Below are positions 31,431 to 31,687 of a stretch of 35,243 nucleotides of DNA, one piece after another. Made by a program: the position numbers and the translations under genes. The stretch comes from a virus (lineage: Duplodnaviria > Heunggongvirae > Uroviricota > Caudoviricetes), in IMG/VR virus record IMGVR_UViG_2737471821_000011, positions 1 to 35,243 of that record, one strand, 5' to 3'. Position 1 is the first letter of the stretch, and every line of letters begins with the position of its first letter. The notes below the pieces were generated by a model that had not been told where the DNA came from, did no database searches, and saw only the letters and a program-made list of their open reading frames with translations.

Positions 31431-31455
31431 AGGCCGCTTTCGCGGCCTTGTTTTT
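31431..31455 (+). terminator. Intrinsic terminator at the end of the late operon
   Basis: AGGCCGC-TTTC-GCGGCCT followed by TGTTTTT. Confidence 0.75.
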
Positions 31456-31615
31456 AACGAATACCACCGCCGCCAGGGCGGGAATCCGCAGAACGCCCAC
31501 CGCAGCGGGAGCCGTCAGCGGCAGTATCGCTGTCGTGCTGACAACGACCGGCAAAGGCCTGAGTTGAAGCTACCAGAGACAACAAAACGAACAGTGCAGC
31601 AAATGCTTTTTTCAT
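31454..31615 (-). CDS. Small secreted protein (about 53-aa precursor with Sec signal peptide)
   Basis: Internal ATG of the track ORF gives MKKAFAALFVLLSLVASTQAFA followed by GRCQHDSDTAADGSRCGGRSADSRPGGGGIR: a textbook n/h/c signal peptide with AxA cleavage site and a 31-aa Gly-rich mature peptide with two Cys. RBS is weak. Confidence 0.45.
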   Translation of the reverse strand: MKKAFAALFVLLSLVASTQAFAGRCQHDSDTAADGSRCGGRSADSRPGGGGIR

Positions 31616-31687
31616 TGTGAAATTTCCATCTATAAGCCACCTCAATGTGGCGTCAATGAGTGTAGCACTGACTTTTGTTTCGTCCAC

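Follow-up and report, generated by a model that had tools for sequence, protein, structure and literature searches.

The locus considered here raises the question of how a gene of only 53 codons, lying between the late operon and the antirepressor locus of a prophage, is expressed and what its product may do for the lysogen. The gene is on the minus strand of IMG/VR virus record IMGVR_UViG_2737471821_000011, a stretch of 35,243 nucleotides (nt) that was analysed as a whole and is called the window below. The window is an epsilon15/phiV10-like (Uetakevirus-type) Escherichia coli prophage, and the DNA near the peptide gene matches phages TL-2011b, phiv142-3, HEMP4, EC.W1-9 and vB_EcoP_ZX5, and phiV10 in part. 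An earlier note on this DNA had taken the gene for a moron-like unit encoding a small secreted peptide that could be made in the lysogen. We find that it is a genuine gene under strong purifying selection, and we consider it reasonably probable that it is a self-contained moron of this prophage that works by the mechanism proposed below. Our best guess is that the lysogen makes its product, which would act as a binding peptide in the periplasm. The coordinates of the features are collected in Table 1.

The 53-residue minus-strand open reading frame (ORF) has the coordinates, start and stop that the earlier note gave. Its translation is MKKAFAALFVLLSLVASTQAFA followed by GRCQHDSDTAADGSRCGGRSADSRPGGGGIR, with the predicted boundary between signal and mature peptide falling between the two, and it matches phrog_14503 along its whole length (E 2.3e-40, residues 1-53 onto profile positions 1-53 of 53), a family labelled 'membrane associated protein' in the moron category. 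The annotation of TL-2011b calls the gene product gp43, 'putative transmembrane anchored protein'. The note had suggested a homology search, which gave this full-length match, and had named a lack of conservation of the frame in related prophages among the results that would refute it. Across 127 unique coding sequences (CDSs) from related loci the frame is kept, and in the 25-codon core of the mature peptide synonymous diversity (pS) is 0.64 and nonsynonymous diversity (pN) 0.061, giving a pN/pS of 0.095. All 25 third codon positions of the core are variable, as against 10 first and 9 second positions, and the codons of the signal peptide are less constrained (pN/pS 0.28). Since the frame is conserved under strong purifying selection and the PHROG match spans the whole product, the ORF is far beyond chance. 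Other ORFs do overlap it, one of 47 aa on the plus strand (31424..31567) and one of 78 aa on the minus strand (31318..31554), but the codon-position pattern and the pN/pS suit this frame only, and the frame is kept from Enterobacterales to cyanobacteria; a chance ORF, or a true gene on the opposite strand, can be regarded as effectively refuted. The program-made ORF list gives a 77-aa form starting from an upstream GTG, which was rejected since relatives have in-frame stops directly before MKK and the extension is not kept. Of 5426 complete E. coli genomes, 436 contain DNA of the peptide gene, nearly always as a single chromosomal copy, and the exact protein sequence occurs on at least 1000 contigs.

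The precursor begins with MKK, continues with AFAALFVLLSLVA and reaches A-F-A before Gly23, and its hydrophobic stretch of about 13 residues is of signal-peptide length. In an alignment of diverse relatives, position -1 is Ala in 75 of 79 and position -3 is A, S, V or T in all 79; although the signal residues drift, none of the 78 scorable relatives lacks the positive n-region or the hydrophobic core. By these features the signal is of the classic Sec type cut by signal peptidase I, as the earlier note had read it, and signal peptidase I should release the 31-aa GRCQHDSDTAADGSRCGGRSADSRPGGGGIR after Ala22. A lipobox ([LVI][ASTVI][GAS]C) is absent at the cleavage site, where the sequence is A-F-A-G-R-C, and nearly all enterobacterial members have Arg or Asn before the Cys; a lipoprotein reading, with cleavage by signal peptidase II, was rejected because the peptide has no lipobox. 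The mature peptide has the two Cys and the richness in Gly attributed to it (its 31 residues include 2 Cys, 8 Gly, 5 Arg and 4 Asp). Its 25-residue core follows the motif C-x4-D-x-A-x-DGSRCG-x-R-x4-RPGG, or more fully C-x4-D-[RT]-A-[AS]-DGSRCG-x-R-[AS][AS]-x-x-RPGG, in which C25, A32, G35, S36, C38, R41, G48 and G49 are invariant across phyla. Since both cysteines are invariant, it is likely that a periplasmic disulfide closes a 12-residue loop. The AlphaFold2 model is a moderately confident small knot, with a predicted local distance difference test score (pLDDT) of 85 over residues 31-40.

The region upstream of the ORF was compared in 94 distinct sequences from E. coli, Klebsiella, Kluyvera, Franconibacter, Pectobacterium, Pantoea, Rahnella, Buttiauxella and other hosts. 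They share one order of elements, namely TAnnnT, a spacer of 4-7 nt, a GC-rich stem-loop, a CTACACA box, a Shine-Dalgarno (SD) element and the ATG. TAnnnT lies 3-9 nt upstream of a GC-rich hairpin of at least 5 bp in 16 of 17 lineages, compared with a mean of 0.15 in shuffles. The stem sequences differ by lineage while the pairing is kept (GCCGC/GCGGC, GCCGTC/GATGGC, TGGCTATC/GATAGCCA, TTGCTG/TGGCAG). In a 22-sequence alignment, 20 cells have changed on both sides of the stem compared with 6.9 in shuffles, a value reached by none of the 500 shuffles, and 77.5% of cells pair, whereas sliding the partner column lowers this to 32-50%. In all lineages GGA, AGG or GAG stands 7-10 nt before the ATG, and the SD is unpaired in the predicted leader fold. 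The most economical reading of this arrangement puts the transcription start about 7-8 nt past TACACT, at the base of the hairpin, and it is likely that the leader is about 36 nt long, with a 5'-terminal stem-loop and the SD included. A 5'-terminal stem-loop is an mRNA-stabilising arrangement in E. coli, and the stem-loop found here probably protects the 5' end of the mRNA. The CTACACA box is kept between the hairpin and the SD in nearly all enterobacterial lineages and could be a CA-rich translation enhancer or a binding site for a small RNA or protein. An Rfam scan of 31300-31800 returned sub-threshold chance matches only, and a boxB/nut-like reading was considered and rejected. As a lead only, GCTACACT fits KCTAYRCT, the sigma-S -10 consensus quoted in PMC5650638; C is found at -13 in about 12 of 20 lineages by a hand count on the alignment.

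The earlier note had placed the promoter nearer to the ATG, at TTGACG (31656-31651) and TATAGA (31634-31629), and had expected a very short leader and a poor ribosome-binding site. Both hexamers are there, separated by 16 nt and with 13 nt left before the ATG, and together they match the consensus at 9 of 12 positions, but neither is conserved: at the same sites relatives carry ATAAAG or ATGAAG, and CTACAC, and in some E. coli alleles TTAACG replaces TTGACG. Furthermore, TATAGA lacks the T at position 6 (the -7 T) and the promoter scan rejects it, the proposed -35 overlaps the left arm of the conserved hairpin, and the proposed -10 is the local form of the CTACACA box, within the leader, so that a start from it would remove the conserved SD. 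A functional TTGACG-16-TATAGA promoter giving a nearly leaderless mRNA is for these reasons very unlikely. The short leader gives way to a likely start about 36 nt upstream of the ATG, where the conserved signals place it, with the SD inside the leader.

The operator-like palindrome TTACC-N5-GGTAA is dispersed over the window as 10 exact and 2 one-mismatch sites, compared with 0.61 expected. Paired sites flank the repressor-like gene, two of them in the gap before the next rightward ORFs. In the promoter of the 210-aa gene upstream of the peptide gene (TTGCAG-17-TACTAT), TTACCTCAAGGGTAA at 32406-32420 overlaps the -10 and the start, and the sites at 33473-33487 and 33853-33867 overlap the promoters of the antirepressor-arm and tailspike genes. 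It seems that one regulator shuts many scattered units directly. No such site was found in 31454-31713, the nearest being that at 32406-32420, and of 408 sites in 325 distinct related loci only 2 lie between -200 and stop+60 of the peptide gene. The claim that the cassette differs from its neighbours in having no operator is therefore borne out here and in 323 of the 325 related loci. Since the operator is absent from the cassette and present on the neighbouring promoters, it is reasonable to infer that the peptide unit escapes prophage repression.

By the Juhala/Hendrix definition, a moron is an independent unit of promoter, gene and terminator between backbone genes, such as lambda bor and lom or HK97 gp15. 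The peptide gene lies, as the earlier note had stated, between the late-operon terminator (31431-31448) on its left and the antirepressor locus with its Bro-N arm on its right. On the upstream side, the intrinsic terminator of the 210-aa gene (31688..31712; fold -17 kcal/mol, z -2.96) is predicted to insulate it. On the downstream side, the A-run of the late-operon terminator hairpin contains the stop codon of the peptide gene. Relatives have this hairpin directly after the stop codon, and in most of them, including Klebsiella and Franconibacter, it has a T-run on the peptide strand too, so that the shared hairpin reads as a bidirectional terminator there.

The surroundings of this unit shift. 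Past the palindrome GTGACATGTCAC, which belongs to the phage backbone and is found in phiV10 too, the identical allele is joined to at least 8 unrelated downstream sequences. Among 93 loci with long flanks, the gene for the 824-aa virion protein is convergent within about 750 nt in about half, and a Bro-N gene lies 0.5-1.25 kb upstream in most. The slot directly upstream varies, being filled by phrog_1349 here (the 210-aa gene, common to only about 9 of the 93 loci), by a YafO-family toxin gene and a small ORF in TL-2011b, and by other ORFs in EC.W1-9 and ZX5. In phiV10 (L083, NC_007804.2), positions 3151-3180 hold only the last seven or so codons (GGGGIR-stop), by the late terminator and fused to unrelated sequence. 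This remnant is a deletion scar, and since phiV10 is an isolated, sequenced phage, the gene appears to be dispensable for lytic growth. The guanine-plus-cytosine (GC) content is 0.59 over the ORF, which forms an island at 31400-31599, as against 0.41-0.43 in both flanks, although the Gly/Ala/Arg-rich composition of the product partly forces this. With its flanking terminators, its presence in some relatives and absence from others, its shifting contexts and its distinct GC content, the description of the gene as a moron-like unit was largely right.

From these features we infer a transcription start, export, a disulfide and expression in the lysogen, and we propose the following mechanism. The upstream terminator would insulate the peptide gene from the 210-aa gene, and transcription would begin from the gene's own weak-consensus promoter, with TACACT at 31664-31659 as its -10 and no operator, so that the lysogen would produce the peptide even with the neighbouring antirepressor and tailspike promoters shut. 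The mRNA would start at or next to the conserved stem-loop and continue through an unstructured CA-rich leader to a modest SD. The 53-aa product would then be exported by Sec and cut after Ala22, and the released 31-aa peptide would remain in the periplasm, where its two invariant cysteines probably form the 12-residue disulfide loop.

Several observations weigh against this proposal. The conserved promoter matches the sigma-70 consensus at 8 of 12 positions, which is below the 9/12 cut-off of the promoter scan, and no call was made anywhere in 31380-31780. The peptide gene, the 210-aa gene and the Bro-N gene all point in the same direction. On the peptide strand this E. coli allele has UGUGAC after the hairpin in place of a U-run, so that termination would be weak there; the allele has lost the T-run, as the earlier remark on the lack of a good minus-strand terminator had it, the terminator in question being the shared hairpin that reads as bidirectional in relatives. 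As to the product, the whole AlphaFold2 model is of moderate confidence only (pLDDT 76, predicted template-modelling score 0.39), searches of PDB and BFVD with it gave no fold neighbour, the family profile had 0 sequence matches in PDB at E<=10, and Pfam, NCBIfam and PADLOC scans gave no significant family for the peptide. The conserved-neighbour search of 57 genome loci revealed no partner gene common beyond close relatives. Finally, phage vB_EcoP_ZX5 carries the peptide gene, and growth, biofilm, stress response, antibiotic sensitivity, adhesion and virulence of the ZX5 lysogen are reported as unchanged relative to its parent (abstract of PMC9782041); superinfection by other phages is not among the phenotypes named there.

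In view of the shared orientation and the weak promoter, the gene could instead be the last of the leftward antirepressor arm, expressed mainly by read-through during induction or lytic growth and not as a moron in the lysogen. The Bro-N homologue found upstream in most related loci would also fit this. However, a strong terminator stands between the upstream gene and the peptide gene, the -10 and the 5' hairpin are held at a fixed mutual distance across lineages, replacement of the upstream gene leaves the upstream signals of the cassette in place, and phiV10, an isolated phage, has lost the gene. We consider expression by read-through unlikely. A second alternative concerns the N-terminus, which could be an uncleaved signal anchor that leaves a tiny bitopic inner-membrane protein with a periplasmic C-terminus. 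This would take literally the name 'transmembrane anchored protein' used by NCBI and for TL-2011b, and action near the membrane is made plausible by family members that are tethered through a separate transmembrane (TM) helix or lipobox. Against it, the A-x-A motif for signal peptidase I is almost invariant and the hydrophobic stretch has the length of a signal peptide. Tethered relatives carry a further TM helix after the same signal-like N-terminus, which implies that this N-terminus does not serve as the anchor, and we regard a signal anchor as quite unlikely in the present peptide.

The small size of the product, its Sec-type signal, its Gly-rich C-terminus and its place next to the lysis-lysogeny (antirepressor) region might also suggest an arbitrium-type phage communication peptide or a Gly-rich microcin-like toxin. 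Arbitrium systems have an adjacent cognate receptor gene and a peptide sequence that differs between phages, and class II Gly-rich microcins have a double-glycine leader, a dedicated ATP-binding cassette (ABC) exporter and an immunity gene. Here the mature sequence scarcely differs between phage lineages, or even between phyla, the opposite of phage-specific arbitrium codes, there is no conserved receptor, immunity or exporter gene nearby, and a Sec signal stands in place of the double-glycine leader. Signalling and toxin functions are thus both highly improbable.

We return to the periplasmic binding peptide as the preferred reading, for which the wider family is informative. Databases already carry an annotation of the gene, and uncharacterised occurrences of its core are found in many Gram-negative bacteria. 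The profile search recovered at least 634 clusters (50% identity level) at E<=0.001. In a collection with one genome per species there were 57 loci, all in diderm lineages, spanning Enterobacterales, Rhizobiales and other alpha-proteobacteria, Rhodoferax, Vibrio, Bacteriovorax, a myxobacterium and many cyanobacteria; from enterobacterial phages to rhizobia and cyanobacteria the identity of the core is about 45-60%. The family is abundant in high-GC Rhizobiales. Nearly all members are precursors of about 47-60 aa in which the core directly follows the signal peptide. In variants a lipobox and linker precede the module, longer secreted proteins carry it at their C-terminus, or it occurs in tandem; in a few homologues from cyanobacteria and Beijerinckiaceae the lipobox lies upstream as a separate element. 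A further subfamily (P0151, P0159, P0163, P0178, P0190, P0195 and P0201) has the module at the N-terminus as an ectodomain (…RPGGRNPDTDW), then a TM helix and a cytoplasmic domain of about 150 aa in which a GGN-x-YDAA motif is conserved and for which Pfam gave no match. These forms with an ectodomain and TM helix probably explain the database name 'transmembrane anchored protein', a label that probably misreads the signal peptide as an anchor in the present case. One anchored form, on a metagenomic contig (L380, 1913-2572), ends an operon that begins with a gene for an SNase-family nuclease.

Distant homologues and longer members gave no significant family in the family scans, PADLOC found no defence-system match for the peptide, the 210-aa neighbour or the anchored homologue, and a PDB search with the anchored homologue gave nothing meaningful. 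Neighbouring genes in alpha-proteobacteria and cyanobacteria were mostly unannotated in Pfam and PHROG scans, those recognised being one resolvase, one PrimPol/AAA_25 protein and one large terminase, which is suggestive, not conclusive, of some copies lying in mobile DNA. A literature search on the annotation name, the DGSRCG motif and TL-2011b gave no account of this gene; the neaT paper was set aside as it concerns a different moron. P0228 (805 aa, 11 'repeats') was rejected as a member, being a false positive with chitin-binding peritrophin-A domains. PHROG 14503, PHROG 3117, the NCBI 'transmembrane anchored protein' and TL-2011b gp43 are the same family, with identical proteins in hundreds of genomes, but these entries are annotation labels only.

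Like the classical morons, the cassette is insulated, has an odd GC content, is present or absent in close relatives and has a product predicted to be directed to the envelope. Unlike lambda bor and lom and HK97 gp15, it has no sequence kinship with them and encodes a much smaller product, predicted to be soluble in the periplasm, whereas the classical products are a lipoprotein and outer- or inner-membrane proteins. T4 Spackle (Sp), T5 Llp and phi80/HK022 Cor are small phage proteins that act at the periplasm or outer leaflet on the envelope target of an incoming phage, and they provide the functional analogy behind our best guess. The analogy is one of logic only, since no sequence or fold similarity to them was detected for the peptide; Llp and Cor are lipoproteins, whereas the peptide has no lipobox, and unlike these exclusion factors its family also occurs in loci with no recognised phage gene among the neighbours checked. 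Iap of phage D3, an inhibitor of O-antigen polymerase, is another very small envelope-directed product of a temperate phage that acts in the lysogen. The peptide resembles it in being very small, in its predicted direction to the envelope and in coming from a temperate phage of Gram-negative bacteria, which we take as a lead only: peptides of the D3 Iap type are hydrophobic, reside in the membrane and serve a single O-antigen system, whereas the present peptide is hydrophilic and occurs across phyla with unrelated surface polysaccharides.

The peptide would accordingly be a stand-alone copy of a small extracytoplasmic module that is elsewhere fused, to lipoprotein anchors or to a TM helix and cytoplasmic domain, or arranged in tandem. 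Since the module is anchored, fused or tandem elsewhere, it most likely binds a conserved target in the envelope or periplasm. Both target and phenotype are guesses on our part, and in the prophage we would guess at a function in lysogenic conversion or of the exclusion type. More speculatively, and with the odds against it, a free-standing disulfide-loop domain of about 25 residues, spread by prophages and independent of the repressor, might bind a universal component of the envelope and so provide a new form of periplasmic protection or envelope modulation, for example by blocking the cell-wall or membrane step of an incoming phage. Its hosts would be Proteobacteria, cyanobacteria, Bdellovibrio-like bacteria and myxobacteria, with some copies beside other mobile-element genes.

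Table 1. Positions in the window of the peptide gene, its putative expression signals and the surrounding features
Feature	Position	Strand	Remarks
CDS, 53-aa precursor	31454..31615	-	ATG 31615-31613, stop TAA 31456-31454; full-length match to phrog_14503
Signal peptide, codons 1-22	31550..31615	-	MKK, hydrophobic core, A-F-A cleavage motif
Predicted mature 31-aa peptide	31457..31549	-	Cys25 31543-31541, Cys38 31504-31502; conserved core
SD-like GGA	31625..31627	-	9 nt before ATG
TTATAGA, local form of CTACACA box	31629..31635	-	contains TATAGA, the -10 of the earlier note
5' stem-loop GCCAC-AUUGAG-GUGGC	31636..31651	-	conserved; predicted mRNA 5' end
-10 element TACACT	31664-31659	-	TG at 31667-31666, C at -13; element spans 31659..31667
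-35-like TGGACG	31681..31686	-	inferred; 16-nt spacer, weak 4/6 match; within conserved TGGAYGAAA block
Intrinsic terminator of upstream 210-aa gene	31688..31712	-	10-bp hairpin GAAGCCCGC-AGC-GCGGGCUUUU and U-run
GC-rich hairpin	31431..31448	both	late-operon terminator on plus strand (T-run), shared with minus-strand peptide gene
12-bp palindrome GTGACATGTCAC	31419..31430	both	downstream contexts diverge from here
TTACC-N5-GGTAA sites, left part	6481-6495, 6543-6557, 7255-7269, 7303-7317, 9586-9600, 9648-9662
TTACC-N5-GGTAA sites, right part	12042-12056, 12060-12074, 15203-15217, 32406-32420, 33473-33487, 33853-33867
Repressor-like gene	6615-7199
824-aa virion protein gene	28788-31262	+	phrog_684; near late-operon end
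Small membrane ORF after 824-aa virion gene	31272-31373	+	33 aa
210-aa gene upstream of peptide gene	32346..31714	-	phrog_1349
Bro-N/Ant-like antirepressor gene	33218..32493	-	Pfam and PHROG scans

Two further observations were made in the neighbourhood. The perfect palindrome GTGACATGTCAC has three exact copies in the window (11952-11963, 14217-14228 and 31419-31430), the chance expectation for one copy being about 0.002. All three are at operon boundaries, two of them beside a terminator-like hairpin, and among 379 fetched related loci the palindrome is next to the peptide-gene terminator in 232; possible roles are those of a regulator site and of a recombination linker. The small membrane ORF that follows the 824-aa virion gene has 33 aa here compared with 46 aa in phiV10 (PhiV10p21, two predicted TM helices), the window being short of one A (aaccgtaatg compared with aaccgtaaatg), which causes a frameshift.

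The exact cassette is carried by about 8% of complete E. coli genomes, and there is neither a Pfam or NCBIfam model nor a solved structure for it. If it proves to be silent or free of phenotype, as the findings on the ZX5 lysogen hint for standard assays, it would be an ordinary uncharacterised moron. Its promoter, 5' hairpin and CA-rich box would together represent a compact conserved expression module. If the peptide is indeed made by the lysogen and acts in the periplasm, it would be a very small and easily synthesised effector of lysogenic conversion, and a function would be gained for a widespread orphan domain.

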